Below the pieces are notes generated by a model, which saw only the letters and a program-made list of their open reading frames with translations, ran no database searches and was not told the origin of the DNA. A DNA stretch of 63,944 nt, the filler included, from Reclinomonas americana ATCC 50394 (taxonomy: Eukaryota), in the NCBI GenBank assembly GCA_048213135.1. It is 19 parts of 19 records of this genome, joined end to end, with 100 filler letters (N's around TTAATTAATTAA, not from the genome) between each part and the next. Parts side by side here need not be neighbours in the genome. Positions count along the whole stretch, not along the records: positions 27,044 to 29,309 come from AFZH01017906.1; positions 29,410 to 30,600 come from AFZH01017907.1; positions 30,701 to 32,421 come from AFZH01017908.1; 16 more parts are not named here. One strand, 5' to 3'. This document shows, one piece after another, positions 565 to 41,200 of the stretch (positions are counted from its first letter, which is position 1; each line of letters opens with the position of its first letter). Position numbers and translations under genes: made by a program.

Positions 565-3112
565 CCGCACGAAACGCATCGACGACCTTCTTGATCAACT
601 GCCTGGCGTTGTTATTCGTCTGCCCATAGTTCTCCGGCCACGACGCAGTCAGCACGAGACCGGCCGCCGCCAGCACCACCAGTGACAGGTCAAAGGGTGC
701 GACAGGGCCTGGTGAATCGCACAAGTTCAGCATCACTTCTCACGACTTTGGGAGGATATGAAACTCTCACGCACCAAACCACTCCTTGAAAAAGTAGGCC
801 ACGACGCCAGCCACGATTGCCACGACGCCGTTGCCAAAGGCGCCGTATGAGAATGTCGACACCAGTTGCTTGTTGGTGAAGCCGCGCTGCAACAATGCGG
901 TGAGGGAGCGAGCAAGAGAAGGAGAGACATCTTCACCCTTTCACGCACCAAATGATGCTCGTGCACCATCCACGTCTCAAACGCCGAGTACAGCAGCGAC
1001 GTGGCCGTGCCGCCGGCGATGCGACCAATCATCAGCACGGTGAAGCTGCTGAAATGCTTGGTCACGCATGCAAAGCCGTAGATGCAGCAGTACGCCACGC
1101 AGCCGAATCGACGGCCCCTGCAGCGGCGGCGGGAGTTAGCAGGGCGGGAGGAAGACGGAGGCTGGGAATGCACGCAACATGACATCCACCAGCGTGCCCG
1201 CCACCGTGCCCAGCAGCATGCTGCTGCCAAAGCCGGCGATGAAGAGCGCGCCGATCTCGCCTCGTGAGAATCCGTACAGCTTGTACAGGTCGTATACGTA
1301 GGGTCCTTGCAGCCAGTCGCCGCCTGCACGAATCAGGGAGAAGTGAGCGCCAGAGAGAGGGGAAGAGGGGATGGGGCGAGCAGTGTTGCTCTCTGCGATA
1401 TGGGTGTGACAAGTACCAGTTCTCTTGACATCCAAGTCGAAAGGTACGTGGTCACCCTCTCTATCTCTCTGCGAAGAATCCATTCCTCAAGGGCCTGCTC
1501 TCTGAATCCCGAACTCTCTCGCTCACGAAGCGTTTCCAACAAGCCCCTCTTGCCGCGTTGACCCTTCTTTCTCCACTTGGGTGACGGGGAGGAGAAGACA
1601 GAGACGGGAAGACAGGAAGGAGAGGACGCAGAACTTGTGCTTGCGGCAAGCGTGGAAGGCAGGCGACAAGCTCTCTCTCTCTCTCTCTCTGAATGTCACT
1701 CGCGATTCCTTCCCAACAATACTATCTGCCCACTCGACTCTTGGTGTTGTTCTTCACTCGGAGACGGAGAGGGAAAGACGGAGAGGAGAAGGCAGAGGGA
1801 GAAGACAGAGAGGAGAAGACAGGAAGGAGAGGATGCAGAATTTGTGCGTGCGGCAAGCGTGGTGGGCAGGTGATAGGCTTTTTGTTCTCTCGCACTCTCT
1901 CTCTGAATGTCACTCGCGATTCCTCCTCAACAATACTATTTGCCCACTCGACTCTTGGTGTTGTTCTTCACCCGGGAGACGGAGAGGGAAAGACGGAGGA
2001 GAAGGCAGAGAGGGACAGCTGACATGCTCTCTCTCTCCCTCTCACCCTCCCTCTTCCACTCGCTCTTGCTTCTCCAGCCCACCATTCTTCAAAGCTTTCC
2101 CTCGCTCCAACTCTTCCTCTCTCGTTGAATGTACTCTGTCTTCTTCCTCACTCCCACCTGCCCTCTCCAGATGCTCCCTCCCTTTCTCGTCTCTACCTGT
2201 TCTCTCTCACTCGCATTCATCGAATGCAAGAAGCCTTCTGCGACGAGAGCCAAAGAAACGAGAGCAGAACTCTGTTTTCTCTCTCGCTCCCTCCTGACTA
2301 TGTCAACTTCCTTCTTCCTGAACGCTTCTTCTTCTCTCTCATGCATGTAATGCAAGAAGCCCTCAGCGACAAGAAGGGCAGAACTCTTTCGATTTCTTCT
2401 TCTTCGTTCTCATTCTCTGACCGCAGAAAGCATTCTGCTTGAATACCTAAGAGACAGCTGCTGTTATCTATCTTCCCCTCGTCGAGCCCCTGCTCCACTC
2501 ACTCACTCTTTGCAGAAGGCGGAAGACAACCAAGATCCAAAACCCGAACACTGATCATTTTCTCAATTCCTTCCCCCCACTTTGCCCCCTTTCCCTTCCT
2601 CCTTCCCCCCCACATTACCACTCACCAAACGCCAACAAGAAGATGAGCAGATAGTTGAGCCGAAAATCCGCAAACGCCTTGTCCTGCGGATCGACCGTCG
2701 AATGCCCGCCCGGCGCCGCCTCCAACACCACCAACTCAGCCGACGACGTTACCGCCGCCGACGACGACGACGTTGACAATGCCGTCCCACCGTTCGGCGT
2801 CCCAGTCGCGGCCGCGGGAACCGCAGCGACAGTCGGCGATTCCCCAAAGCGACGCTTACTCGCGCTCGGTGACAATGGCGACGATGACGGCGTCAGTGAT
2901 GATGCTTTGGCGGGAGGCGCGAGTGTGGCGGTGCTCGCGGCGGCATTGGCCGAGGAAGGCGAGGCGAGTGGGAGTGGCTGAGGTGGAGGCGGTGAGGAGC
3001 GCAAGGCGGTGAATCCTTCGCGTCGCCGCGTGGCCGAGGCCTCCATGCGTTGCTGGTAGATCACCAGTGCGGCGCACACGCCGAGTAGTATGATGAAGAT
3101 GGCCACGTACAT
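565..3112 (-). CDS. MFSD5: MFS molybdate-anion transporter (MFSD5/MOT2 family), multi-exon, 3' end beyond window start
   Basis: ATG at 3112 with an N-terminal TM (MYVAIFIILLGVCAALVIY). Spliced exons give FRLNYLLIFLLAFGGDWLQGPYVYDLY..IGALFIAGFGSSMLLGT..GRRFGCVAYCC..GRIAGGTATSLLYSAFETWMVHEH..GPVAPFD..WPENYG, hallmark MFSD5 motifs. Intron 1 is 2625-1324. Confidence 0.92.
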
Positions 3113-10061: not shown

Positions 10062-10327
10062 TCTTCTGTCAACAATGACGAAGGAGAGAGATAAGAGAGG
10101 ACGCTGATATAGGACGTCTTTTTCTCCGACGTGAAGCCGCAACAACAGTCCGCGTTGTGTGGGTTCTGTGCGACAGCTCAGTTGCCATTCCTGCTTTTGA
10201 TAGAGAGGTGTGCAACGAGTGGCAAAACACATTTGCATCTATATTCGCCCAGCGTGGTGCTTGATCATGAACGATGCACGTGATATGAATGTCACTTGAA
10301 CGACCAGAGAGCACAGTGTTCTGTCGT

Positions 10328-13061: not shown

Positions 13062-13314
13062 TCTCAGTGATGTGAGACGAGAGATGAGAGAGGACACGGG
13101 ATGCAGGACTTCTATTCGTTTCTCCGTCGTGAAGTCGCAGCGAAGCAGGAACAACAGACTGCATTGGAGGTGATGGGGTCTGTGCGGCTGCTCGGTGGCC
13201 ATTCCTGCTCTTGATAGCGAGATGCACAACGAGCGACAAAACACACTTGCATCTTTTCGCCAGTTTGGTGCTTGATGACACCTGAGAGACCAAGAAGTAC
13301 TGTGTTCTTGTTAT

Positions 13315-15602
13315 TCACTCAACGAGGAACACTTCGTAGTCGGCCACTAGGAATTTGTACGATCCCATCAACGTCGTGTTGTCATATGCTCCACCATCAG
13401 TGCTCTCGTAATTGCCAGGGTTGCTGAAGTTGCTGCTGTCGCTGTTGCAGTTGTCAGCCACGAGGAGGTCGTGGCCACCTGCGAAGATTGGTCCATAGTC
13501 GACGCGGTGATACACGGCATTATCTCTCCTGTTGGCCTTCAGTGCAAAGCGTCGCACACTTGCACCACTCCACGATGCCGAAAACAAGAAGCTGGTGCCT
13601 GACGGGTCGGCGCCTGACTTGGACTGCCACGATACAGGCGTGTACCCGCCACACACTCGCCCCGTCGACGACTTGACCACAGTCAGCGTCGCTCTGCGCA
13701 CAGTCACCCATCCATCAGCCACCGAGCAATATGAGCTGACTCTCCTATCTCAATCACTTACCCTCGATTATCACATCGCTGATGGAATGTGGCCGCTGCG
13801 AACCCATCTCGACTGCCCTTGAACAGCAACGTCAACTTGGTCACACTACCACCACCGCCTCGTGCTTGCTGCACCCACTGCAACACCACTCGTCCATCCG
13901 CCACACTCAGCAAATCGCTGTCGACCTTCCTCTCCGCTCGCTCACGCTCATCTCGTTCCCTGGCCTCGCGCTCTCGTTCCTCTTGCTCCCTGGCTTGCCG
14001 CTCCCGTTCTTCCAGCTCTCTGGCCAGCCGCTCCCGCTCAGCCACCTCTCGCTCCTGAATCGCACGCTCACGCATCTCCAGTGGTTCGAGACGAGCAAGC
14101 AGCTGCAAAACATGCAGCGTGAGCGGAATAACTGAGCACTCGAAATCCACCGACATTCATACAACAGACCGCAGCAACACCTCTTTCGAGAGTTTCGCGC
14201 ATGCGCTGCTCCGCGGCGAGTTGCTCACGAGCAGTCTGGATTTCAGCCTGTCGCGTCTGTCGCTCATCAGCCAGTTGCTGGCTGCATTGAACAAGCCGCT
14301 CATCCGTCGACTGCAGTCGCTCCTCAACAACTTGTCTTGCTTCTCTCTCCTGGGCCACCATCTGCGACAGCTCTCGCACCCGAACATGCAGCTGTGCTCA
14401 CAAACACAACCCACATTAGCTGCATGAATGACCAGCAGCATCCGCAGCCAACTCACCTCTCGCAGCGGTCGCTCCACTCGCAGCACATCGCACACTCGCT
14501 CATGTTCCTCCCTCTCACCAATAATACCACGCCATCCACACCCTAGTTTGTCACCACGACACACTGTGCGCTGCAGTCGGCACTCCGTTTCTGCCGCAAG
14601 AGAACAATGAGACACCACGTCAGTGTCATGATATCCAACTCTCTCCTTCAAGTACACTCACCAAGATGCCTCTGCATGTCCGCCAGTGAGCACAGCTGCT
14701 GGCATCCGCGAGGACACGCGCGCATGCACCCACTCCAGCTGTGCTCCACCATTTCACTCAGTGCGATCTTCGCTCCACATGCCAGTGGACACTCGCGCAA
14801 GCATCCACTCCACGCATGCTCCGCCGTGCGATCCAGTGTCATCTGCTGTCCACATCTCTCGCACGCATACGGGCACTGCAACGGGCCATGTGTGCGGTAA
14901 TAGTCGCCCACCGTCTGTTCATCCACAATGAGCGGAGAGGGAGAGAGAGGGAGGACGATGAGATGGAAGATTAGAGAATGAGAATGAGAGGGGGTGAACG
15001 GAACGAGAGAAAGACACCAAGAATGAGAGGGAGGGCAAGAGAGGTAGAGAAAATGACAGGGTGCAAAGAATATGAGATAATGACACTGAAAATGAGAGGG
15101 AGCAAAGAGAACGAGAGAAAGACACCAAGAATGAGAGGGTGGGCAAGAGAAACAGAGAGAGAGAGAGAGTGAAATGGAGCAAAGAAAATGAGATAATGAC
15201 ACTGAGAATGAGAGGGAGCGAGAAATACACCACAACAAGAGAAGAAAGAGCACAGCAAACACACAAACCATGGGTGCGTGACAAAGCGGGCATGAGATCT
15301 GCATTCTCACATTGTCAGCAAAACAAGGCAGGCAGCATGCACAACGAGCATCATCTCCCCAACCTTCAAGTTGCCATAGATGACCACATTCCGTCGCTGA
15401 GCCTCCTTCAGTGTGGCCAGCGATGTGACTCCATCGCCACACAAATCTGACCCGGCCCCCGTCACGTGCTCACTGCCACGCCACTCGTCACAACAGTTGT
15501 GCATGACATGGAAGATCTTGTCTCTCTCCCTCTCCCGCACACTCACCGACAGATGAAGTGCAGCTCGTGGGCACACAACACGAAATCCGGAGCACACAGA
15601 TC
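13315..15602 (-). CDS. RING-like/TRAF-ZnF/coiled-coil/TLDc protein, copy B (exon 1 in gap)
   Basis: Same exon structure as copy A. TLDc ends ..HRVDYGPIFAGGHDLLVAD..FLVADYEVFLVE, stop at 13315. Confidence 0.88.
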
Positions 15603-15764
15603 CTGTTGCACAAAAGTCATGTCACAACAAGCACGATGAAGCAGGGCGAAGGGTGGTGGCAGGGCGACTCATGAACGAAGACTGTACTTTCTCTCTCTTC
15701 ATGTGATGAGGATGTACACATGAAACACTGTTGCAACGCGGCAAGAGTGCATCCTTCTCTCTCC

Positions 15765-15810
<46 letters not shown>

Positions 15811-16048
15811 NNNNNNNNNNNNNNNNNNNNNNNNNNNNNNNNNNNNNNNNNNNNTTAATTAATTAANNNNNNNNNNNNNNNNNNNNNNNNNNNNNNNNNN
15901 NNNNNNNNNNTTTTCTTTCTTCTCTCTCTCTCCTCCTCTCTCTCTCTCTCTCCTCTCTCTCTCTCCCTCTTCTCTCTCTGTTCTCTCTGTGCATGCCATC
16001 GTTTTTCCTTCTCACTTGCTTTTTCTCATCTCTTCTCTCTCTCTCTAG

Positions 16049-18816
16049 GTGCTTGAGGACTGGTCATGCGTGCAACAACGCTTGCATCGACTGGTGGAGC
16101 ATGTGCGACGCATTGTGGATGATCCGCAGTGGCCAGTGTCGGAGGCGCGTGTGCAGGTGATTGACTGGAGGGAGAGAAGAGGGAGGGAAAGGGAGGGAGG
16201 GAGGGAGAGAGAGAAGGGAGAAGGGAGAGAAGGAGAAGGAGGGGAGAGAGTGAGAGAGAGAGAGAGAGAGAGCGAGAAAGAAAGAGACAGCTCTGTTGCA
16301 GTGTTCCTCTCTCTCCTCTCTCGTTGTTGCTTCATGCAGAGAGAGAGAGAGAGGGTGAGAGAGAGAGAAAGAGAGAAAGAGGCAGCTCTGTTGCAGTGTT
16401 CCTCTCTCTCCTCTCTCGTTGATGCTTCATGCAGTCTCTCGTCCGTGAACCAAGTGTCTCTGCATGGTCATCTCCCCTGTTGCTATGTTCTTACCAGTCT
16501 CTTGCCTTCTTCTGTATACTTGTCTGTCTTCATGAATACCGTGGCTTCTTGCAGTCTTGCTTCTTCATTCTCTCAGTTTCTGGCGCTGCTTGTTTCCTTG
16601 CCCTTGTCTCCATTCCTTCGTCCTTTCTTCCGGCATGCAGAAAGAGAATGTCAAACAACAGAGTTTGATCTCTCTATCCACCGCTTCATTCTCGTGTCTT
16701 GTCTCCGTCACCATTATAATCCTTGCCTTTCTCGATTTCCCTTTGTTGTTCTCTCTCTCTTTCTCTCTCTCTCTCTCGCCACAGGACCCCTTGTCACTGC
16801 CTGTCTCTTTGCTGCTCTCACTTCCCTCGTCCTCTTTCCCTATCTCCCTCTCCCTCCCTCCCTCTCCCTCTCCCTCACCCTCCCTCTCCTCAGCTCGACT
16901 CCCTCCACCGCCAGCTCCTCAGCAACCCCGGTGCCAACGCCACCGCATGGCGCCAACTCCTTGACAACGCCCTCTCCACAGACACCGGCCTAGCGAGTCG
17001 CTTGCTTCAGACCGCCGCCCTCGACGACCCCACCGATGCCGTGTTGGATACATGCATCGACGCTCTCCGACCGCACTCAGTGTTGCAGCAGGCGGAGCGC
17101 GCGTTGTGTGCCGAGATCGGTCGTGTGCTGGCACCCGCAGTGGAGGCGCCTGACTATTCCGCGTCGTGGTCGCACGCTATGCATCGGCAGCCCATTCCTA
17201 CGGACTCAAAAGCGCCTCCATCACCGCCACCACCACCACCAGCGACATTTGCGTGCTTGTCCGGCGGTCCGTTTGCGCGGCGGCCGCCCCGTGTGGCGCG
17301 CACCGCCGACGACATTGTGCCGCTGTTGCGACAGTATGCAACGACAATTGCGACGGCAGTGGAGGCATCGCCAACGCGTGAACCCGTGCTGCCACTGGTG
17401 CGCTTGCATGTCGGTACTGCGGCGACGCACGAGACTGCCGTGGTGGAGAGGGAAGCGGTGCTGCGTGGCCCCAGGTGAGTTGGGGAGGGGGTAGGGGAGG
17501 GAGAGAGAGGGAGAGAGAGTGAGGGCACGCGAACAAATTCCTGCTGGGGTGCTCTTCTCACTTGAGCCACAATCCTTGCATGCACTTGGAAAGGAGGGTT
17601 TTGTATGCCACACAAATCCTCTTTTTTTCGCCATTCTACTCCTTTTATTTCTCTCCTTGCGGGACTGAGATAGAAAGCTCTTCTTCCGTCATGGGCAAGA
17701 TCTTTGATTCGTCGTTCTGGTCACTTGAGCCTCTCCTCGCACGCGTCTGTCGCACTCATTGTCTTCTTCATTTGTTGTCTTGCTCCCTCTCCCCCTTTTG
17801 TGACGTGAAGCTATTTGTCAGTCACACTCAACAGCTTCTGTTTTCATTCTTCTTTTCACTCTCTCTCCTCTCCAGTCTGCTCTCTCCCGAGTCGCTCGAC
17901 GTTGCGTGTGCTGTGTCGCCGGATTCGCGACAGAGAGACGTCGTACCTTCTGCACGGGCGAGCAAGCTCGTCGCCGCTGTCGGTGTGGTTGCCTGCGGGA
18001 GGTGAGGCAGAGTTCAACTTCTGGTAGTTCTTTCTCTCTCGATTCACTCCGTGTTCTGTGCGCAGTGCAAGTGCTCCGCCGCCAGGAATGTCGTGGCCGA
18101 CCAGTGAGGTGCGTTTGCTTGCAGTTGCTTGGAGCAAGACCCTCCGTCTTAGTCTCCGCGTGGTATTTGCAGTTGGCCGCCACAACAGCGAATCATATGG
18201 CTGCTGCGCTTGGCGGGGTGGCGGAAGGCAATCTCGTGCGCGTGCCACTCGATCTTCTGAGTGAGCACGCGTCGCTGGAGGAGGGACGTCCTTTAATTGC
18301 TGATGCGGCAGGTGTGTAATGGATGGAGACAGCCCTTGATCCCTCCCTTCCCTCCCTTCCCTCCCTTCTCCCTTCCCCTCACATCTCCTTTCCCTCTCTT
18401 CTCTTTCCCCTTATTCCTCCTACCTTTTTTTCTCCCTTCCCTTTTTCTCCCTTCTCCCTTCCCCTCCCTTTCGGTCTCTTTGCGCTGACACTTTTCCCGT
18501 CACCAGTGGACGCCGCCGCCTCCGCCATCACCTCGCACATCAGTGGCGAGCTGCAAAACGACTTTGCCCATCAGCTGGTCAACGCAAGAGACCAAGTCTC
18601 CCGAATGGAGTCCACCGCCCGTGAACCAGTAACCGAAGCGGAGCTGCAGACTGCGCGAGCAGCTTGTGCACAGGCCGACGACGAAGACCGCGCCATTGTG
18701 CAGCAGGTGCTTCACGCATGTCCTCCTTTTGCTGCACACAGCCACTCACTCGTCGCTCGCAGGAGACCGCGGCATTTGTGCAATGGTTGAGACAAGAGCA
18801 GCACCTTATTCCATGA
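16049..18816 (+). CDS. Hypothetical multi-exon protein (helical, 5' end in gap)
   Basis: Phase-consistent GT-AG exons VLEDWSCVQQRLHRL.., LDSLHRQLLSNPG..LRGP, SLLSPESLD.., SASAPPPGMSWPTSE, LAATTANHM.., VDAAASAITSH.., ETAAFVQWLRQEQHLIP*. No family recognised. Confidence 0.6.
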
Positions 18817-18974: not shown

Positions 18975-20365
18975 TCACCGGAAACGCAGTCGTCGGTGTG
19001 CCTCGTCGTCATCGTCGCCGTTCCACTCCACGCCACCATCGTCGTCGTCACTGGCGGTGCGAGGTGGGGCGCGCGCTGCGCTCGACGGTGTCTTGTTGAG
19101 GATGCGGTGCAGCTGCAGCTCCCGTCGCTCTCGCTCCAAATCGTTGCGCATGCGGGCGACCTCGTTGCGCTGCAAGTCCAACTGACGTGCCTCGGCCAGC
19201 AGGCGCTCGCGCTCATCGTGCAGGTGCGCCTCGCGGTCAGTCAACAGCTTCTCGCGCGCCAGGTCGAATGGCCTTTGGATATCAAGTGAGACTCTTTGCT
19301 TGCATGCAATGAGTGAGAAAGACAACGCAACGAAGAAGGCCCTCCACGATTGGCGGTACCCAGACCGCCGCCCGGTGTGCTCAAGATCTTGGCCACATCG
19401 TACGGGTCGGTGATGCCGTCGGCAGAGGACAGCATCAGCTGCAGCAGGCGCTCCTGCTCGCGGATAATAGTGACATAGTCGCCTGTTGCACAACACCTCT
19501 GTCAGTCGATTGCTAGCACTTTTCCTTCCCCCCACATGCCACGCAACGAAGTTTGCTCTGCACGGCGGGGTCGGTGACAGACGGGGAGCCGACGCCGCGC
19601 GACGCTGACATCGTGAGCACCGCCGTCAGCAGCGGATCCGAGTCGGAGCCGGAGGAACGAATGTCGCGTGCGGGTGTCACCGGCGTGGACGGCGAGGCGA
19701 GCGACGAGGAGGCGGCGGCACTTGCTCTGCTACCCTCCAGTTCTCGCACGCGGACGCGCAGCTTCTCCAGCTGCTCGTGCATGGATGATTCGCGGCTGGC
19801 CATCAGTTCGTAGGGGAGGGTGAAGACGCCGGAGGGGGTGGCCGAGCGGAGGCGTCTCGGGAGCTGCAAGGAGGGGAAGGGGAAGGGTGGGTAAAGGGAA
19901 AGGGGGAGAAGGGAAAGGGTGGGAAAGGGAAAGGGGGAGAAGGGGGAGAAGGGAAAGGGGAGGGGGAATGGAAGGTGGGGAAAAGGTGAAGCAAAAGGAG
20001 AGAAGGGAAAGAAGGAAGGGAAAGGGAGAAAGGAAAGCAGGAAGCGAAAGGGAAAGGGGGGAGACAGAAGGCAAGCAGATCGGTAGGCATACGAGCTGTC
20101 AGCTAAAGAACAACACAATCAGGTGCACAGACAGACTGACAGACATTTTGAGTTATTCAGCGAGAAAGGAAGTACAGAGAAAGGGAGGGAGAGAGAGAGA
20201 CAGAGAAGGGCGTATTTTGAAGGGAAGTCAGAAAAAAGGGACGGGGAAAGGGGGATGCGGGTGAGAAGAGGGAAGGGAGGAGTAGGGGGGAAGAAGGCAC
20301 GCAGATGTAGAAAGCACACGACTACAATAATATCAGGCGCGCAAACAGACTGATTGTCTGAGACA

Positions 20366-20398
<33 letters not shown>

Positions 20399-22041
20399 TG
20401 AGAGAAAGTAAGAAGAGAGAAAGCGAGAGAGAGAGAGAGGGTAGAAAGTCGGAGAGGGTGGAAGTGAGATTGAGCAATATGAGAGAGACGGGGAGTGGAT
20501 GAGAAGAGCTACAGACAGAAAGAGAGAAAGAGAAACAGCGACTGTCAGAGAGAGTGCAAGAGGGAATGCCTTTCGCAAGTTCCTTTTGTCTGCGCATGTC
20601 TTCTTGCCTACTTGAATACTTCCCATCTTTACAAGGAAGTGAAAATGGAGAGAGAAAGAGAAAGAGCGACAACCGGAGAGAGTGCAAGAGGCAACGTCAT
20701 TCGCAGGTTCCTTTTGTCTGTGCATGTCTTCTTGCTCACTTGAATGCTTCCCATCTTAACAAGCAAGAGAAATGGAGAGAGAAAGAGAAAGAGCGACAGC
20801 CAGAGACAGCAAAAGAGGGAATGCTTTCGCAGGCTCTTTATGTCTGTTTCGTGTCTTATTGCCTTCTTGAATGCTTCACCTCATAGCAAGCAAGTGCGAC
20901 GGACAGCGACACACAAAAGAGAGTGAGTGAAAGAGGGAATGCCTTTCGCAGGCTCTTTCTGTCTGATTTCGCATTTTTGCCTGCTGGAATATTTCCCCTC
21001 GTAGCAGAGGGAGAGAGAGTGAGGGACACAGCCAGAGAGACTGAAAGAGAGAACGGCATTCGCGGGCTCTTTCTGTCCGTATTCGAATCTTCTTGCCTAC
21101 TTGAATACTTCCCCTCTTAGCAAGCAAGTGCGATGGAGAGAGACAGACAGACAGAGAGAGATGGAGAGAGGTGGAGAAAGTCGGAGCGACAGCCGGAGAG
21201 ATTCGTCACTCGCAGCTCTTTCTTCTTCTTACTTGAATACTTCCCTTCTTAGCAAGCAAGTAAGATGATGCTGTGTATCCCTTAGTGTCGTGTCAGACTC
21301 TTTGCCTGCGTGCTATTCACCCAGCTGCTTGCGGTGTGCGTCTCTCTCTCTCCCCCCCCTCTCCCTCCCTCCATACGCAACATTGCGCACGGCCGACTTG
21401 GGCTCCAACCGCATCACCTCCTCCACCAGCAAGTCAATGTGCTCCTGCAGTTGCTGCACATCGGCCCGCAGGCTCTTGTTCTCATCAATCAGCTCGTTCT
21501 GCCGATCCTCGTAGGTGCGGACAATGTGCGTGAACATGTCGTGCTGCACGAACACACACCTCAGTCAAACATTTCAACACAAGAGGAGAGGTCATCAGAA
21601 TCACCTGCTGCGACTCAGCGCTGACCGGAATCGCCGTACCACCCAGCGATGCTCGCGGGCCGGCTGACGGCGCGCCGGAGGGCGACAGTGGCTTCGGGTT
21701 AATGACGATTTCGGAGCCGAGGTTGGCGACGACGCCGGCGGAGCCCGGGCGCATGGAGCTGCGCAGGGTGGTGGAGGAGGATGAGGTGGATTGAGAGGTG
21801 GTGCCGCTGGCGCCACGCAGGGCCGAGTTGAGGCGGTCGCGGAGGCGAGTGTATTCTTGTTCTTGCTTGCGGGCGTTGACCTTGCAGAGGGGGGAAGGGT
21901 GGGTGAGGGGGAAGGAGAGGAGAGGGGGGACGGAAGGGAAAGGGGAAGAGAGAGGAGGGAGAAAGGAGAGGGGGGAGGAGAAGGGAGAGAGAGAAATGGG
22001 GGAAAAGGGAGATGGGTGAGGGAATGAAGTACAAGGGAATG

Positions 22042-22243: not shown

Positions 22244-23211
22244 TAACCGAAAGAGGAGAGCGAAAAGAAAGACACACAAGGAATGAAGATGCGAGTGGCA
22301 GCAAACAGCAGCGGAGACAAACAAGGATGCCAACACACAGTGGGCGACAGTGAGCACGCTTTAGAAACAGGGCAGTAAGCCTCTGGCAAACAGAACGCCA
22401 CACAGTAATGGTGGCAACGCAAACAACGCCAACAGACGGCACATCCCCCCTTTTCCTATTCGCGCACCATCGCCGTCTTATTCTTCTGCGACAAGTCATT
22501 GTTGGCAGCCACCACTCGATCAAACTTCTCCTGTGCGTCCCTGCGCTCCCGTGCGCTATCGCGCCGCAGTTCACTGCGCCCCCCGGCAATCAATGGTCAC
22601 CATCACGATCACAAGCAAACGCACACGCCACCCCCGCACGCAACTCCAACTGCGCCTTTTGCTTCTCCACCTCCCGCATCGTCAGCTCCAGCTGCTCCGA
22701 CTTGCGTTTCTGCGTGCCACAACATCATCAATCTCGCTCCCCCTCCGCACCACCCTTCGCCCTCCCAGGCCACTCACCAAGTTCCCCGACAGAGTCTCAT
22801 AGTCGCACTCGAGCTTGCGGATCTTCTCCGCCGACTGCTCGCGATACCCGAGATCCACCTGCCGCTGCTGCAATAGTGCCGCCACGCAGTCGAGCACCTG
22901 ACGCGCCTCGTAGTCCTCGAGCGGCTGTCGTGACGACGAGGAGGCCAGCACCGACGGCAGGGTGGGGAAGTTGTGCTCGCGCAGGGAGCGGTTGACGTAG
23001 GCCAGCCGCTCTTCCACCGAGTCGACGGCCAGGCGGTCGCCGCCGCCGCCGCCGCCCGTCAGTTCGGAGCGAGGGAAGACGAGGGCGGAGGAGCGGGCGC
23101 TGCGTGAGTGGGTGTGAGGAGAGAGAGGAGGAGGAGGAAAAGGAGGATGGGAGAAATGCACCTGCGAAAGGGACTGTCCTCGGGTTCGTCGTCGTAGGGA
23201 CTGCCGTCGAC
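18975..23211 (-). CDS. SSX2IP: Afadin/alpha-actinin-binding (ADIP/SSX2IP/Msd1) family coiled-coil protein, 5' end in gap
   Basis: LAYVNRSLREHNFP..VLDCVAALLQQRQVDLGYRE; DMFTHIVRTYEDRQNELIDENKSLR; GVFTLPYELM..MHEQLEKLRVR; IIREQERLLQ. These blocks appear in the order recalled for plant/animal ADIP-family proteins. Confidence 0.8.
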
Positions 23212-27043: not shown

Positions 27044-27110
<67 letters not shown>

Positions 27111-27437
27111 GTGTGAGAGAGAGAGTGTGTGTGAGAGAGTGTGAGTGTGAGGTTAAGAAGGAGAGAGTGAGAAGGTGTTTCTCTTCAACACTTCGTGACA
27201 AGAGTGCTATCACGGCACATTCTCTCCTTCCCTTCAGCTCTCTCATTCCCACTCTCTCTCCCCCACTCATCTCTCCTTCGCCACGCACCTCACCTCCGAA
27301 TATGCGCGTGTCGCCGTCCGCGCCATTTCCAGACTCTCTCTCCTCTCACGCAGCCACACTCTCACTCACACTCTCCTCCTTAAGCCTCTCACACCTTTAT
27401 CACACGCACATTCCCCTTTGCCCTCACGCGCTGTGAG

Positions 27438-30054
27438 ATGATGATGCCGATGCAGAGGAATCTCCCAAGATTCACTCTCTCACTCACTCCTTCGCCTCGT
27501 CCTCCTCTCTCAGCGCCCTTGCTCTCCGTCGGTCTGCGTTCCATGAGCTCGACTGCCGGCGATTTCCAAGTTCCGCCCGGCACACCGTGGTTCCCGCGCA
27601 GCATTGGCGAGCTGGACGAGCTCAAGTATCGCATCCTGGAGGGCGGTGATCAGCTGGAGGTGCGATCCCACACAAAGGAAGCTTTGTTTATGTTGTTGTG
27701 CTGAGCTGGGTGGTATGTGCAATCAGGCCGATCATCCCGGTTTCAACGATCCGGCATACAGGCGCCGTCGTGAGAAGATTACACAAAAGGCCATTGAGTA
27801 CAACTAGTTGCGTCCGCTGTGTGGGAGAAGGATGGCGATTGCTCCCTCTCTCTGTCGCCTTCTTCCTCCTCCTCATTCCTCTTGTCTTGCTTCTGTTCTC
27901 TGCTGTTCGTTCTCCCCGTGATCTTCGTCATCTCGTTCTCTTCCGTTCTCTGTTGCTGTCTGTTGCTCGCCCTCCTCCTCATCCTGTTATCTTGTCCTTC
28001 TTCTACTTTTCCTCCTCCTCCCTCCCTCTCTTTCCCTGCTCTTTCTCGGGTGCTCTATGTCTTCGTTTTCCTCCATTCCTGGTCGCTGTCCGCATTTCGT
28101 TTTCCCTCTCTTTCTCTCTTGGCTATTTCCCGGGTGCTCTTTTGTTCGTTATCATCATCCTCCAGCTGGCTCCATTCCGTGTCGCTCTCTGCATTTCGGG
28201 GGTTTCTCCTTTCTCTCTGTCCATATTCTTCTCCGTTCACCTCCTCACACGCTTGTCTTGGCTGTATTCTTTGTTGCTCTCTGCTGTTCGTTCTCATATC
28301 TCTCACGTGCTCTCTCGCTCGTTCTCGCTTTCTCTCGCGCGCTCTCTCTCTCTGTCTCTCTCATTTTCGTTCTCACTCGCTCTCTCGCTCTCACTCGCTC
28401 TCTCGCTCTCACTCGCTCTCTCGCTCTCAGTCGCTCTCTCGCTCTCACTCGCTCTGTCGCTCTCACTCGCTCTGTCGCTCTCACTCGCTCTGTCGCTCCC
28501 ACTCGCTCTGTCGCTCTCACTCGCTCTGTCGCTCTCACTCGCTCTGTCGCTCTCACTCGCTCTGTCGCTCTCACTCGCTCTGTCGCTCTCACTCGCTCTG
28601 TCGCTCTCACTCCCTCCCTCCCTCCATCCCTCTCCCCCTCCCTCCCTCCCTCCCTCCCTCCCTCTCATCCTTCCCCCTTCTATCCCTTCTCTCCTCTGCC
28701 TTGCAGTGGCGACAAGCTCCCGGACTGCGAGTACTCGGCCGAGGAGAACAAGGTGTGGACAGTGGTGTACGACGAGTTGATGCGGCGGTACCCGACGCAC
28801 GCGTGCGACGAGTTCCTGGAGGTGCTGCCGCTGATGCCCTACGATCGCCGGTTTATTCCGCAAATCAGCGCCATCACCTCGGTGTTGCAGCGTTGCGTCT
28901 CTCCTCCACGTACCACGAACGAGAGGACGATGTTCTCACTGCACGAGGCGCACAGCGTTGACGGGATGGACGCTGCGGCCGGTGGCGGGGCTCTTGTCGG
29001 CGCGTGACTTTATCAACGCACTAGCCTTCAAGGTGTTCCACTCGACGCAGTACATTCGACACCCGTCGGTGCCTTTCTACACCCCAGAGCCGTTGCGTTT
29101 GAGAGGGATTTTATGCTCATTCTTCGTGTCGGCGTGCGCTGTACTCCTCCTTTGACGTCGGCGTGCTCTGTACTCCTCCTTTCTCGTCGTCGGCGTGCTC
29201 TGCACTCCTCCTCCCCCACGTCGGCGTTCTCTGCACTCTTCTCTCACGTCGGCGTACTCTGCATTCTTCCCTCACGTCGGCGTGCTGTGCACTCCTCCTC
29301 CCTCACGTCNNNNNNNNNNNNNNNNNNNNNNNNNNNNNNNNNNNNNNNNNNNNTTAATTAATTAANNNNNNNNNNNNNNNNNNNNNNNNNNNNNNNNNNN
29401 NNNNNNNNNTGTCGTCGGCGTGCTCTGCACTCCTCCTCCCTCACGTCGGCGTGCTCTGCACTCCTCCTCCCTCACGTCGGCGTGCTCCACACTCCTCTCT
29501 GTCGTCGGCGTGCTCTGCACTCCTCTCTGTCGTCGGCGTGCTGTGCACTCCTCTCTGTCGTCGGCGTGCTGTGCACTCCTCTCTGTCGTCGGCGTGCTGT
29601 GCACTCCTCCTCCCTCACGTCGGCGTGCTGTGCACTCCTCCTCTCTCACGTCGGCGTGCTCTGCACTCCTCTCTGTCGTCGGCGTGCTCTGCACTCCTCT
29701 CTGTCGTCGGCGTGCTGTGCACTCCTCCCTCTCTCTGGAACTGAAAAGCCGTTCTCGTCACAGTGACATCGTGCACGAGTTCATGGGCCACGCGCCGATG
29801 TTTGGCAATCCCGAGTTTGCCGAGTTTTCGCAGACCATCGGCCTCCTCTCGCTTGGCGTGTCGGATCATGCGCTGACCCAGTTGGCACGCGTTGCGTATT
29901 CTTTATACATCCTTTGCGTTCTCCTTCCACTCCCCTCTCAATTCAACCCCTGGTGCAGTGCTACTGGTTCACTGTGGAATTCGGCCTCACCAAGCAGTCC
30001 AATGGACTGCGCGCGTACGGTGCGGGTCTCCTCTCCAGCTTTGGCGAGCTCGAG
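27438..30054 (+). CDS. PAH: Pterin-dependent aromatic amino-acid hydroxylase (phenylalanine 4-hydroxylase-like), partial
   Basis: [119 protein letters not shown], with Fe ligands H, H and E intact. Introns at 27660, 27807, 28892, 29092 and 29891. Possible last exon from 31670. Confidence 0.93.
28373..28610. repeat. Intronic 18-nt tandem repeat (TCACTCGCTCTGTCGCTC)
   Basis: About 13 near-perfect copies in PAH intron 27807-28706. Confidence 0.95.
29127..29727. repeat. Intronic minisatellite (GTCGGCGTGCTGTGCACTCCTC core, ~28-34-nt units), spans a gap
   Basis: Many copies on both sides of the 29310-29409 gap in PAH intron 29092-29763. Confidence 0.95.
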
Positions 30055-30749
30055 GTGAGCGGAGGGTGATGCAGTAAGCGGGGGAGAGAACGAGAGACAC
30101 AGGACACTGATATCGATTTTGTCTTTTGTCTGTGTCACCTGTTCGTCTTCTCTCTCCTCTCTTCTCTCTCTCTCTCTCTCTGTGAATCTTCAATTTCGCG
30201 CTTCATTCTGCGCTCCTGTCCTGCGCTTTTCTCATTCTCTGCATTGCACGATCCATGTCTTTTCTCCCACTGTTATGTCTCGATTGTTCTCTCACGTATG
30301 ATGTCGGCGTCTCTACCCACTCGCTTAGCTGCTCAACCTCATTTTGCTGCCAGTCCATGATCACTTCGCCAGGGTTCTGTGTCTGCTCTGTCGCACAACC
30401 TATATCGCTCGATGCATGTCCACTTTTCCGAGGCATGTGTTTCATTGCACACATTCCGCACAGCACTTACTTTGCTCTCGTTTCTCTCCCTCCTCTTCTC
30501 TCCTCTCCTTCCTCTATCTCCTTCCCCCTTTCCTTCCCCTTTTCCTTCCCCCTTTCCGTCCCCTTTCCTCCCCTTCTCCTTCCCCGTTCTCCTTCCCCGT
30601 NNNNNNNNNNNNNNNNNNNNNNNNNNNNNNNNNNNNNNNNNNNNTTAATTAATTAANNNNNNNNNNNNNNNNNNNNNNNNNNNNNNNNNNNNNNNNNNNN
30701 TCTCGTCTCTCTCGTCTCTCGTCTCTCTCTCTCTCGTCTCTCTCGTCTC

Positions 30750-34800: not shown

Positions 34801-36501
34801 TTTCCCTTTCTCAACAGCCACCTCCTTCTGGTGCACTCTCCTACTCTCTGCATACGCACCGGAAAGACAGCTGAAAAAGGCGGCTGTGCGTCCACCACAC
34901 GCATATCCCACATGCGTATGACACTCGAGTCTTCGCCATCACCAATGCTCGACACGGTGACCAGCAGCTGATCGTCGGACGACATCTGCGGCACGCGCGA
35001 ATGAGAACACATGACTCCACGCGACAGGAGACAAACAAGCGCCTCACCTCACAGTCGGTGATCAACTCAAACTGTGGGCACTCGACGCGCCTCGGATCAG
35101 CTCCATCCTCGCGCAAATCCCACACCACGAAGCAGCCGCGACCGCCGAGCACCGCAGTCTTGGGGTGCACCCGCGAGGGGGCGATTCCGCACCACATGTA
35201 CATGCCATTGTCTGCGCGCGTGGACACGGCAGCGGACATGGGGAATGGGCCGAGATAGGCACCGTGCGACACATCGTCCACGACCAGTGCCACGGGTGCG
35301 TGACTGGAGAATGTGCTGTTTTTGGGGCACACGCGTCAGCACCTCGTCGCCACTGCTCACATCACAAAGACGCAACATGAAAAGCACCGTGCCATCGCAC
35401 GACCACGCCATTTTCTGAATCATGTTGCAAAACACCTCCGAGGTATCCTCCGGACCCATTACCCGCAATCTCTCGCTCCGCCGCCGTTGCGATTTGTCGT
35501 ACACGAACACGATGGGCATGTTGTCGGTGTCGACGGCGGCGATGAGCACGACGCCGTCTTTTCGCAGGCAGCTGACGGCAAGCGGGCCTGCGGTGGGGAA
35601 TGAGGGAGAAGGGGGAGAAGGGGGAAGGAGGGAGAAGGAGGGAGAAGGAGGGAGAAGGAGGGAGAAGGGGGAGAAAAGGGAGAAGGGGGAAAGGGAGTGA
35701 GGGAAGGGGGCAGGGGAAGGGGAAGGGTCTGCAAAAGAGAGGAGGTAAACAGAGAGATCTATGTGCAAGCAGCTGACTGCCTGTGGACCTGCAGAGAGCA
35801 ACAAAGGGAGAAGGGCAAGGAAGCAAAAGGGAAAAGAGGAAAAGGGATAGAGAGTAACGGCGGGAGGAGAAATGCTGAGCTCTCTCTCTCTCTCTCTCTG
35901 TCTGTCTCTGTCTCTCTCTCTCTCTCTCTCATCGTCATCTTCTGCCGCTCTGTGCTTGCTTCTCCTCTGCTCCTGTCCGTATGTGGGGGAGTGAGGAGTG
36001 GGGTTAACAAAAGAATGAAAACGGATGCTTGCAAGAGAGAGATGTAATTGCAAAAAGGTGCCAGCCAGAGATCTCTTGGACACCAACAGTAGAGCAGACG
36101 ACACGAGAACAAGAAATTGGGAAGGGATGAAGAACAACAGCAAGCAGAAAGCGGCGAAGGGCGAAGAAGAGCGAGTCAGTGGAGGGAGAGAACGTAAAGG
36201 AAAGAGGCAGAGAGAAGAAGGAGAATAGCAGCGGATGCGGACTGCATGCATGTCAGAAAGAGACTGAGAGAGGCGAGAGATGGGGGACGAGGGATTGCTT
36301 GACAATAAATCGAACAGTGAGTGAGAAAATGCACGGAGTGAGTGACAAGAAGAGAGCAAGAGTGAAACAGGAGAATGGTAATGGATGAGGTTGGCTTGCT
36401 TATGAGAGGAAGAAGGAGAGAGAGAAGGGATAGAAATCAGGGAGAGATAGATCGGAAAAACTCGTCATCGTTGCCTCTCTCTCTCTGTCTCCTCGCTCCT
36501 C

Positions 36502-36533
<32 letters not shown>

Positions 36534-36806
36534 GTACTCGTCTCTCTCCCTCTACTCGACTCGTACTACGTCCGTAAGTCCGTTACGTACCGNNNNNNNN
36601 NNNNNNNNNNNNNNNNNNNNNNNNNNNNNNNNNNNNTTAATTAATTAANNNNNNNNNNNNNNNNNNNNNNNNNNNNNNNNNNNNNNNNNNNNGGGAAAGG
36701 AAGGAAGGAAGAGAGAGAAGGTAAGTAAAGTAACGTAACGGAGGAGAGTAGTACGTAAACGTAACGTACTACTCGTTCGTCGTCTCTCTCTCTCTCTCTC
36801 CTCCTC

Positions 36807-36855
<49 letters not shown>

Positions 36856-37163
36856 CGCACCTGTGCAATCCTCAAAACCCTCAGTGTCCGTCAGATGGTC
36901 AAAGAGATTCGATTGCAGTCGAGTTGCAATCGTATCCGCGCTGATGAGTTCTCGTTTCCGCCATCGCCTGAGAGAGTGAGAGAGAGTGAGAGAGTGAGTG
37001 AGTGAATGTGTGTGTGCGAAAGAGTGAGAGAGTGAGTGTGAGAGAGAGTGTGTGAGTGAGTGAGTGTGCGACGCAACTTGAACGATGAGTGCACGCCAAA
37101 CGACCACACACCGCCTACTTGGTGAACAATAGAACGCGGTCTCAGGCGATCACAAGGAGGCAT
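31848..37163 (-). CDS. WD40-repeat protein fused to UBR7-type UBR-box and PHD finger
   Basis: WD-like blades: GCFVVWDLRE, SSDDQLLVTVSS..VIRMWDMR, FLGDDMVMSSQDDGTVHVWS. Spliced in frame (LSS|AHALPEWM) to an acidic linker, then CTYDTGYVRQLVYVCRTC..AGVCKACAKSCH..FRCDCG..NRYNHNFRVRYCYC..QCTKCEDWFHFTC..FMCETC. Confidence 0.8.
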
Positions 37164-38289: not shown

Positions 38290-41200
38290 TCATGTAGGGG
38301 CGACGACATTGCGCGAGTGTTCTAGTGGTGGTGGAAGGGTGGCGGAGGCCGCGGGTGGTGATTCCGCTGCCGTTGTCGAACTTGAATTCAGCAGAGGAGT
38401 CAGGAACTGCATAAGCGCGGCGCGGACTTGATCGTGGCGGACTGGTTTCAGGAGGCGCATGTCCAACGCCGAGTCCATGCTCTCGACACTGCGTGGGAAG
38501 GCAGAGAGATAAGCTGGGGAAACTACAGGCAAAGGAGTTCACATCAAGACAGCACCTGTCGAGACTGTGGGCGGAGACAGCGACGATTGGCAGCGCTCCC
38601 ATCGGCGGACCGAGTTGACGCATTCTGCGCGCGGCTTCGTCGCCGTTCATGCGTGGCATCTGAGGAGAGGGGACGAGAAGTGAGCACTGAGATGAAAGTA
38701 CGAACGCACGTGATGGTCTCGCATTAGCTTCTATTTCCATCAAAGTCTCAAGGGTGCCTTGGTGATGGTCTGCCTTTCCTCACATTCCTTCCTCTGCGTG
38801 CAAATCCTCGTCTCTCCTTCAACGTCTGGCACTATCACTTTGCCTCACAGGGCGCCAATTTCTTCTCAACTAATGCTGCCGAAAGTGGAAAGCGTTCTGC
38901 ATCCACAGCCTTCACTGACAGAGTGCACAGCTGCCTAGTCACTGCATCATTCCCACTCTTCCAATCAACTCTCAGTCCCCATAATGCACAACAGTCCAGT
39001 AGTTGTTCCACTTAGTTTCTCTGGCCGATTCAACCTCGGGAGCGTGCAAAGTAGCGCTGATGACCACTAAATCTCTCTCACACTACACTGTCAAGAATGC
39101 CAAGCTTCGCGCTGCAATGCTGGAGCACGTGCCTTATCCACTCTCTGACTCGTGCAACGCTCTGTTTCTCTGACCTCTCCCACCGTTACATCATGCCGCT
39201 TCCCACACGCTGTCCCACCCACCACTCTGCCCCAGCGTGCAGTTCTCCACTTTCCACTCTGCGCTACACCCACATTCTGTCCCACCCGCCACTCTGCCCA
39301 AGCGTGCAATTCTCCACTTTCCCACTCTGCGCTACACCCACATTCCGTCTCACCCACCACTCTGCCCAAGCGTGCAATTCTCCACTTTCCCACTCTGCGC
39401 GACACCCACATTCTATTCCACCCACCAATCTGCCCAAGAGGGCTGTTCTCCACTTTCCCACTTTTTCCCACACTCCGCATCCCTCATCCACAAACCATTA
39501 CATCCGTAAACACCATGTCGAACGGCCACTTTTGCTGCAGCACTTCCAGAGCCTCGACTCCGTCCTCTGCCACCTCGTAGTCACAGCCCAGCTGCGACAG
39601 CATGCGGCAAATGACTGCACACAGAAGAAGAGGAGGTGTGAGACAACTTCCCTTCTCAATTTCCAAACTCTCTCAGAAACGCGACTATGTAGACATCGCT
39701 TACTTCCGCTGCTCTCTCCCATTCCCCCCCCCCATTTACCTCTCTGATTAACCCGATTGTCCTCCACCACCAGGATCCGTGGCGGTCTCTGCCACATGGT
39801 CGCCGTCACCAGAGTCCTGCGCGACGCCGGCTGGGGAGAGACACTCGGCGACGGAGTCACACTTGGCAGGTCTCCGCCGTCGACTTGCGAGTCGGTCGGA
39901 TCCACCTCGGAGAAGGCTGCCGAAGGCGCTCCCTGCTTCGGCACACGCGAGTGCTGCAGATGCGACTGCGCACGACGGAAAAGATTGCGCAATTTAGCAA
40001 GAGACGATGCACGGCGGATTAATGCGGAAGTCGACACGCAACTGTGAGCGACGTGGAGCGCAGGACCGGATGCAACGATGAATCGTCGTCCACTCCCGAC
40101 AAGGCAGACGTGATCTTCTCGCTTGTCACCGGCTTGCTGACGTAGCGAATCGTTGCAGGTGAGGAGCCTTCAGATACCAGCAGGCTGTCGATGGCCTGCA
40201 GAGAAGAGAAGGGTGAGCGAAGCAATGCTCCCTTTCCTGTGCCTCGCTCCGCTCTGCTCACTCACTGCTTCGCTCCGCTCTGCTCACTCACTGCTTCGCT
40301 CCGCTCTGCTCACTCACTGCTTCGCTCCGCTCTGCTCACTCACTGCTTCGCTACGCTCTGCTCACTCACTGCTTCGCTCCGCTCTGCTCACTCACTGCTT
40401 CACTCCACTCCGCTCACTCACTGCTTCGCTCCGCTCTGCTCACTCACTGCTTCGCTCCACTCCGCTCACTCACTGCTTCGCTCCGCTCTGCTCACTCACT
40501 GCTTCGCTCTGCTCACTCTCTCTCTCTCTCTAACCCCTCCCTCCTTCTCTCCCTCCCTCCCCACCCCTCCGCCTTTCCCTTCCCCAACTCCCACTCACAT
40601 CTCGCGCCGCGCCCGCCAACAACGGCAACACCACGAGAATCACACGCGCCGCCCTGCACAGCTCCTTCCACTGCGGCGGCTGTGCCACTGGCGGCAACGG
40701 ACTCATCTCCCCCGCACCGGTGGGGAACGCGGCGGCGACCTGCGCCGCCGACGAAATCACCGACTCCAGCATCTCCGCATCGACCAACACAAAATCCCAC
40801 GTCTTGCGCCGATCGCCGAGCAGTGGCGGCGAGCTGCCGAGACGCGGAAGCAGAATACTGTTGGCCCGCGACACACTGGTGGCCGTCGTGTCGCCGCCGC
40901 CAAAACTGTCGCTGTAGACACTGGCGGCGACCTCGGTCTTCTTGAGCATGGAGGCCAGCGCGTCCGAGTCCTGGTGCGCCGCTCGGGTGCGCTGCGAGAA
41001 GAACGACAGCGGATCTGAAATGGCCTCGACGCGCGACGGCTGGCACTGCTCCAGCCACTCGAGCATGAACTCGGCCGACGAATTCATGCGCTCCGCCCAT
41101 TGCGGGCACACGAGCAGCACCGACTTGCGCAAGAATGGATTCGGCGCCAGCTGATACATGTTTGACGACGACGAGGTGGGGGTGAGCGTCGGCGACGAAG

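Follow-up and report, generated by a model that had tools for sequence, protein, structure and literature searches.

GTTGCGT donors and the last exon base in introns of Reclinomonas americana

How is a 5' splice site recognised when the exon before it does not end in G? The question is raised by a stretch of 63,944 nucleotides (nt) from Reclinomonas americana ATCC 50394 (assembly GCA_048213135.1), which is called the window below. It is DNA of an intron-rich eukaryote with a GC content of ~54%, and its contigs are joined by N44-TTAATTAATTAA-N44 linkers. A first-pass annotation of the window described two kinds of intron donor: ordinary ones, which mostly follow an exon ending in G, and GTTGCGT donors, which mostly follow A, C or T. 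Every donor that it named is present at its place in the sequence (/ marks the cut). These are the ordinary donors GAG/GTGCGA at 27660, GAG/GTGAGC at 30055, TTG/GTGAGT at 2625(-) and AGG/GTGAGT at 4402; the GTTGCGT donors after CTA at 27807, AGC at 28892, GCC at 29092, CGC at 29891 and CTG at 52871; and, as ordinary donors after a base other than G, TTT/GTACGT at 51675, GAT/GTGAGT at 40598(-) and TCC/GTGAGT at 61099(-). The reading favoured here, with about even confidence, is that one spliceosomal system serves two sorts of GT-AG donor side by side, and that GTTGCGT is read one base further into the intron.

Donor words and the last exon base

The word GTTGCGT occurs in 27 copies on the two strands of the window, against 7.3 +/- 2.5 in 100 shuffles (largest 13). 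GTTGCGG is found in 2 copies, and GTTGHG overall (H, A, C or T) in 145 against 121 expected. The excess resides in GTTGCG(T), not in the broader GTTGHG pattern.

Introns were called by a dynamic-programming (DP) gene finder, self-trained on codon usage and intron composition, which also used an acceptor/branch model and a donor model restricted to positions +3 to +8. The last three exon bases (-3 to -1) never entered donor calling. The output was 89 introns in 32 strand-resolved models. A motif-blind test, given as delta below, determined whether the best parse keeps a candidate site with its own motif score set to zero; 10/12 DP-called GTTGCG donors are retained by it. Two other settings of the gene finder were not kept: without any splice signals it ran through short introns, and with low gene-start costs it split the hydroxylase gene described below. 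With 29092, added from homology, and 40042(-) and 22644(-), added from local scoring, the 12 DP calls make 15 supported GTTGCG donors, and 21381(-) is a possible 16th. The 12 represent 12/89 called introns, or 12/38 of those with a well-defined donor. A further 21 DP calls, many of them doubtful, begin GTT with other words, and G is at -1 in 3/21.

In the DP set, G stands at -1 in 1/12 GTT[GA][CA]G donors, in 22/26 GT[AG]NG donors and in 29/43 of all GT[AG] donors. When the last exon base is set against donor class in these window introns, an association is present whether the comparison is with GT[AG]NG (Fisher, P=1.2e-5) or with all GT[AG] donors (P=5e-4). It is also seen among donors with delta>2 only (1/7 vs 21/25, P=0.0014), with hand-added sites included (1/15 vs 24/30, P=3e-6), and among homology-verified donors only (0/5 vs 3/3, P=0.018). 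Taken without gene models, G precedes 3/27 GTTGCGT words vs 55/177 GT[AG][AC]GT words (P=0.04). False DP calls have random -1 bases, so that they dilute the association rather than produce one. Protein homology confirms five GTTGCGT donors, each of them after A, C or T. The sole supported GTTGCG donor after G is 52871, the same exception that the first-pass annotation gave; its total of 18 of 19 GTTGHG donors after A, C or T has to be reduced, as only 15 GTTGCG donors are supportable.

That most ordinary donors follow G, as was also claimed, agrees with the 22/26 above. Inside predicted exons the neutral rate of G is 23.8% before GT and 17.2% before GTT, and the ordinary class is strongly enriched over the former (P=1e-10). 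Even perfect ordinary donors keep the exonic G, since 16/20 GT[AG][ACT]GT sites follow it. Donors after G include the degenerate words GTGCTT, GTGATT, GTGCAT and GTGCTG; the four credible ordinary donors after non-G, at 62214(-) and at the three sites named earlier (51675, 40598(-) and 61099(-)), all carry the full GT[AG]NGT. Exon side and intron side are anti-correlated in the manner of a seesaw (the Fisher test with P=1.2e-5). The contrast between the classes arises from the enrichment of ordinary donors for -1G. The GTTGCG donors have lost the exon-G preference, and avoidance of G is not demonstrated in the window. Thus, of the proposed separation of two donor classes by the last exon base, the association stands and the avoidance does not.

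The second property of the class is its rigidity. All 15 supported donors are GTTGCG, and 14/15 are GTTGCGT, with T at +7; nothing past +7 is common to the 15. The 26 ordinary donors have G19/A7 at +3, C15/T7/A4 at +4 and T at +6 in 20/26, and only 10/26 of them read GTGCG. No GTTGAG site (~35 in the window), no GTTACG or GTTAAG site (~12) and none of the 60 GTT[GA]TG sites in the window is supported by motif-blind scoring. The pattern GTTGHG used by the first-pass annotation was therefore too wide, and its alignment of the two classes as one motif was too simple for a loose ordinary word and an invariant GTTGCG.

It might be supposed that nothing more than an ordinary seesaw and the picking of introns lies behind these figures, GTTGCGT being one frequent strong donor word whose link to non-G exon ends was created by ascertainment. 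Compensation between -1 and +5 is universal according to the available part of one report (PMC11732430), the -1G frequency of the GTTGCG class is not significantly different from the neutral one, and a donor model trained on its own predictions could favour GTTGCG. However, the exon side was never used in donor calling, 10/12 DP-called donors hold with the motif score off, five are verified by homology, the word itself is in excess (27 vs 7.3), and no ordinary consensus contains a T at +3 with a displaced GCGT after it. This explanation is regarded as very improbable.

In other respects the two kinds of intron are alike. Median length is 66.5 nt in both; the -3 base of the intron is C in 11/12 GTTGCG introns and 22/26 ordinary ones, and a strong branch word (CTCAC, CTGAC or CTAAC) is found in 9/12 and 15/26, respectively. 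The GTTGCGT introns are not a minor-spliceosome class. Window-wide, short introns carry CTCAC, CTGAC or CTAAC ~10-25 nt before a CAG acceptor; CTCAC has 367 copies on both strands of the window, partly within repeats. One difference was observed on the 3' side: the downstream exon starts with G after 1/26 ordinary +5G introns (exon G content 33%, P=4e-4) vs 5/12 GTTGCG introns (Fisher P=0.008).

GTTGCGT introns in a phenylalanine hydroxylase gene and elsewhere

The firmest junctions lie in a gene for an aromatic amino acid (phenylalanine) hydroxylase (Pfam Biopterin_H), of which the first six coding exons occupy 27543..30054 on the plus strand (27543-27659, 27727-27806, 28707-28891, 28956-29091, 29764-29890 and 29959-30054). 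Single exons match Pfam PF00351 with E values of 2e-11 and 8e-15, and the catalytic core matches solved PAH, TH and TPH chains, exon 4 against 5jk5_A with an E value of 2e-20. Aligned exon by exon to the human PAH chain 1dmw_A with phmmer, the gene covers residues 27-51, 54-115, 121-163, 165-205 and 208-238. The split codons TA/T, C/CG and CC/T, together with a few unaligned end residues, close the gaps between these segments exactly, and on this alignment all four predicted GTTGCGT junctions of the gene are residue-exact.

The first intron has an ordinary donor, GAG/GTGCGA (27660..27665, delta 6.7), and an ambiguous acceptor at 27705 or 27726; the DP finder erred in placing it at 27705 instead of 27726. 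The four GTTGCGT donors follow. The one at 27807..27813 comes after CTA in phase 2 (TA/T, Tyr) and opens an intron of 900 nt; it is placed by homology. The next, at 28892..28898 after AGC in phase 1 (C/CG), has an intron of 64 nt and is given by both homology and DP. At 29092..29098, after GCC in phase 2 (CC/T, Pro), homology places a donor whose intron is 672 nt long including the assembly linker that falls inside it (intron 4 of the gene). The last, at 29891..29897 after CGC in phase 0, has an intron of 68 nt and rests on homology and a motif-blind delta of 3.3. The sixth donor, GAG/GTGAGC (30055..30060), is again ordinary and in phase 0; the residue before it aligns to human codon 355. CT-rich tandem repeats fill introns 2 and 4 (28350-28600 and 29100-29730). 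Their units are of a CTCACTCGCTCTGTCG type with 16 nt and of ~38 nt, and the linker lies inside the second array.

The numbering of 1dmw_A is offset by 117 from full-length human PAH (columns of 6hpo_A), so that these junctions can be set beside the human introns. According to the part of the source available, human PAH intron 5 follows c.509 (c.510 is the last base of the His170 codon), intron 6 separates c.706 from c.707, intron 7 follows c.842, the middle base of the Pro281 codon, and intron 10 is at c.1065/1066 (PMC5759169). Codons 170 (phase 2), 236 (phase 1) and 281 (phase 2) hold the donors at 27807, 28892 and 29092; on those published boundaries these donors equal human PAH introns 5, 6 and 7 in both position and phase, and at 29092 the amino acid (Pro281) and the -1 base (C) are identical to those of human intron 7 as well (PMC5759169). 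The ordinary donor at 30055 has, on the same boundaries, the position of human intron 10. Two positions differ: human intron 8 has no counterpart in this gene, and hydroxylase intron 1 lies 3-4 codons from human intron 4. Human intron 9, which we take to lie after codon 323, would coincide with the donor at 29891.

Judged from this correspondence, some GTTGCGT introns are ancient, with an exon end fixed by the protein. Because position and phase are common to human PAH introns, the word would belong to the reading system and not to a recently inserted element. The step from H/GTGCGT to H/GTTGCGT is a one-base insertion inside the intron, which would offer a harmless path. An old intron may thus have changed its donor grammar by a one-base insertion with the coding sequence untouched. 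A search for homologous proteins with hydroxylase exon 3 gave no candidate with enough common words, and a metagenome scan with the same exon gave one locus at 40% identity, of no use for orthologous introns.

The hydroxylase gene also bears on where the cut is made. If the G of GTTGCGT were exonic, the introns would run from TT to AGN and all these exons would end in G. For the five of 12 GTTGCG introns whose downstream exon starts with G, H/GTTGCG..CAG/G and HG/TTGCG..CAGG/ yield identical messenger RNA (mRNA), and at 29092 the protein is the same, Pro being encoded either way. Protein does not decide at three of the four hydroxylase sites. At 27807, an in-frame TAG would be created at a position at which the homologue has Tyr/His170, as the first-pass annotation had already argued in excluding this cut. 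Moreover, non-GT and non-AG ends would be required at both splice sites every time, and a CAG directly before the proposed acceptor is conserved in 11/12 introns. This parse is refuted at 27807 and hardly credible elsewhere.

Outside the hydroxylase gene, the fifth homology-verified donor lies in an MFS_5 transporter gene, where GTTGCGT follows CAT at 1172..1178 on the minus strand with an intron of 61 nt (delta 5.9); the PF05631 profile is continuous across the exons (49-94, 97-151 and 153-191). Further DP donors with GTTGCGT are found after TTC at 19325..19331(-) (intron 59 nt, delta 4.2), after TTC at 19541..19547(-) (65 nt, delta 5.5), after CTG, in phase 0 and encoding Leu, at 52871..52877(+) (67 nt, delta 4.9) and after AAC at 54821..54827(+) (66 nt, delta 3.5). 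The single variant, GTTGCGA after AAA, is at 56443..56449(+) (67 nt, delta 5.5). A weak call follows CAT at 35370..35376(-) (73 nt, delta 0.1), and two were made by DP only with the motif score (delta 0), after CAA at 37071..37077(-) (110 nt) and after CAT at 57481..57487(-) (63 nt). Two likely donors missed by DP come from local scoring: one after ACA at 40036..40042(-), with an intron of 77 nt that ends in a CGCAG acceptor and is flanked by open coding frames of 53 and 69 codons, and one after GGA at 22638..22644(-), with an intron of 71 nt in a coiled-coil (ADIP-like) gene. The possible donor after AAT at 21375..21381(-) ends a strong open frame with an upstream coding score of 21.2, which is followed by a GA-rich tract; its acceptor was not found.

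Four strong open frames, at 2625(-), 4402(+), 40598(-) and 21381(-), end at good donor words and then pass into GA-rich low-complexity tracts. These tracts replace the usual CT-rich intron, and no acceptor was found after them. Introns rich in purines may thus escape the composition model. At 32369(+), where a contig ends, the sequence reads GTCATG/GTTGCGT; the start codon might here close a first exon, which would make this a second GTTGCGT donor after G. In the gene-poor segment 47650-48960, a GCGCGTTGCGCGCGTTGCAG repeat and an extended (GA)n tract accompany four GTTGCG words on both strands (47786, 48139(-), 48292 and 48413); the words may belong to introns of a promoter or 5' untranslated region.

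Two tandem TLDc/zf-UBZ paralogues on the minus strand (10200-12700 and 13200-15700; Pfam TLD and zf_UBZ) are 87% identical in alignment, introns included. All donors traced in them by alignment follow G (6/6), as the first-pass annotation had stated. The copies differ at one donor, G/GTATGT vs G/GTTTGT, and by a CT-rich repeat of ~100 nt in one intron. Switching of donor class between these paralogues was not found; neither copy has a GTTGCG donor.

How the word may be read

Which RNA reads GTTGCGT, and in what register, we infer from the donors. The word equals G/GTGCGT, the commonest ordinary word, with the second G changed to T. Given this resemblance, the most economical supposition is that ..TGCGT is bound by the surface that reads ordinary donors, only one base farther from the cut. 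U1 would provide this surface early, and the ACAGA box of U6 probably later. The cut is at GT in both kinds of donor. The +1G of the intron would then occupy the slot that -1G holds in ordinary donors. Ordinary donors, which read GT[AG]N and in most cases have +5G and +6T, would depend on the exon-final G. GTTGCGT donors would ignore the last exon base and sit after A, C, T and occasionally G. After an exon-final G the intron word would be dispensable and would decay; after non-G the full word would have to be kept. The association with the exon end would thus be an outcome of selection, a classical -1/+5 seesaw with a displaced word, with no incompatibility needed.

A displaced word could also be held in a bulged register. 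Here +1G and one U would keep their pairing with C8 and A7 of U1, the extra U at +2/+3 would bulge, and GCGU would pair as positions +3 to +6. GTTGCGT is indeed GTGCGT plus one T, and in the available portion of a study in human cells 68 human sites are predicted to use the bulge +2/+3 register, and registers with a one-base bulge are validated (PMC4856993). However, the bulge leaves C9 free for -1G, so that the preference for an exonic G should persist or grow, and it is seen in 1/15 donors vs 22/26 ordinary ones; energies with the textbook U1 end are negligible for this register as well. The loss of -1G (1/15 vs 85% in ordinary donors, P=4e-11) therefore favours +1G in the -1 slot, and the bulge is improbable. 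The contrast at the -1 base may be of wider use, as a means of telling shifted from bulged registers from sequence only.

The first-pass annotation had also proposed that the displaced word frees the intron position from coding constraint. Phases 0, 1 and 2 are represented by 4, 3 and 8 of the 15 GTTGCG donors and by 14, 8 and 4 ordinary ones, an excess of phase 2 (P=0.015), so that 11/15 GTTGCG donors are in phase 1 or 2. In 11/14 GTTGCG donors after non-G, a G at -1 would alter the amino acid. These data are compatible with such freedom, but random exon positions give about the same figure.

Several observations weigh against reading GTTGCGT as the ordinary word moved by one base. In GTTGCG donors, -1G is not below the neutral rates (1/15: P=0.10 and 0.24), and across counts from 1/12 to 1/16 such tests give P between 0.08 and 0.36. 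The rigidity exceeds what an ordinary motif moved by one base would give: with the ordinary frequencies at +3 (G19/A7) and +4 (C15/T7/A4), 15/15 has a probability of 0.009 and 0.0003. The exon side lacks a slid consensus (-1, A5 C6 G1 T3; -2, A6 C2 G3 T4; n=15). After non-G, GTTGCG donors (14) exceed perfect ordinary donors (4 to 6). The pairing itself is a further difficulty. The textbook U1 5' end is ACUUACCU. With this end, which is human and may differ from the host U1, the 15 GTTGCG donors form duplexes of -0.91 kcal/mol on average, and the 26 ordinary donors of -6.25 kcal/mol, 25 of them in the canonical register. The +1G of the 15 pairs with C9 in 1 and with C8 in 2, and is out of register or unpaired in 12. 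A shifted textbook U1 does not explain the invariant GCGU. It would also bind H/GTGCGT at least as well, and so leaves the predominance of GTTGCG after non-G unexplained. Thus, of the original proposal that +1G replaces the missing -1G in pairing with small nuclear RNA (snRNA), the loss of the -1G preference agrees with it, and the negligible pairing with textbook U1 in any register does not. Lastly, the DP models are imperfect, since paralogue alignment indicates that GAG/GTGAGT was missed in both TLDc copies and a GTTGCT site called instead, and every junction rests on DNA sequence or homology.

It follows that either the host's U1, along with the way in which U6 contacts the displaced GU, differs from the textbook, or there is a dedicated reader, or pairing does not select the word. 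A dedicated reader would be a variant U1, another small RNA or a protein with an end complementary to GUUGCGU (ACGCAAC), while a textbook-like U1 serves the ordinary introns; the likeness of GTTGCGT to G/GTGCGT would then be secondary. It would suit the fixed word (GTTGCG in 15/15, GTTGCGT in 14/15, and no variant supported), the negligible pairing with textbook U1 in every register, the preference for GTTGCG over perfect ordinary donors after non-G, and the exon side without consensus. On the other hand, an Rfam search of the window showed no snRNA at gathering level or at E<=1, and branch site, acceptor and length are as in ordinary introns. We regard a dedicated reader as doubtful. A shade more doubtful is a bolder form of the idea, in which two parallel 5' splice-site codes exist: a degenerate, exon-G-dependent one for a textbook-like U1, and an invariant GUUGCGU read by a retuned U1-like snRNA and imposed even on introns that predate the animal split. 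If true, this would be a third kind of donor recognition next to the U1 and U11 types. A rigid word that textbook U1 barely pairs makes the identity of its reader a sharp question. The same Rfam search gave sub-threshold matches to plant microRNA families at 27090-27277, 36394-36844, 59114-59391 and 15929-16221, the best with 46.6 bits against a gathering score of 85; they lie in low-complexity DNA and are taken for composition artefacts.

Comparison with known 5' splice-site systems

No description of such donors was found in the open full-text literature on jakobid introns, snRNAs and GTTGCG splicing, nor is one given in the available parts of three papers (PMC2834692, PMC1201135, PMC8134430). 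In practice, a gene finder that has learnt from ordinary donors will join exons of this genome wrongly.

U12-type introns have the 5' word RTATCCTT and the branch word TCCTTAAC near the 3' end. The GTTGCGT class resembles them in its rigid 5' word, in the lack of an exon-side consensus and in coexisting with degenerate major-type donors. Unlike them, it has GTTGCGT as its 5' word, and its 3' ends, with CTCAC, CTGAC or CTAAC and CAG, are those of ordinary introns.

Human shifted-register sites are rare. Atypical human 5' splice sites that use a shifted (+1) U1 register were reportedly described by Roca and Krainer in 2009, and Roca et al. are said to have described the bulge +2/+3 register in 2012. 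In human cells, U1 has been proven to pair in shifted as well as in bulged registers, as far as the accessible part of the paper goes, and a shifted-register test oligo printed in it reads ACA/GUCAAGUAUA (Tan et al. 2016, PMC4856993). As in the human shifted (+1) register, GU is at the cut and the rest of the word is one base deeper (GT-T-GCG in 15/15 donors here), and the last exon base is non-G. The differences from these human sites are several. Rare in human, such donors here make up 12/89 called introns; the word is an invariant GUUGCGU, not ..AAGU; and textbook U1 pairs negligibly with it. Human shifted sites keep CA at -2/-1 for U1 pairing, according to the same excerpted source, and no such exon consensus is found here, with the low power of n=15 (PMC4856993). 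As in the bulge +2/+3 register, as presented there, an extra U comes right after GU and is followed by a normal +3 to +6 word. Unlike that register, which keeps -1G paired, -1G is lost here (1/15). If transcripts confirm the donors, a free-living protist would routinely use, as a discrete donor class, a mode otherwise known only at rare sites in human; it would serve from one intron in eight to one in three in the window.

Dependence between -1 and the intron side is the long-known 5'/3' compensation or seesaw (PMC11732430), and related papers treat the seesaw or a pair of 5' splice-site classes (PMC9803359, PMC11842720), all as far as their available parts show. As in these seesaw classes, -1G permits a degenerate intron side in R. 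americana, and the intron word has to be complete where the exon ends in another base. Unlike them, the exon-strong class here has no consensus A at -2 (A7 C6 G1 T12), and the intron-strong class is invariant and consists mostly of a one-base-displaced word. Thus, general compensation between -1 and the intron side was already known, and what stands out here is a donor word that is discrete, invariant, common and displaced by one base.

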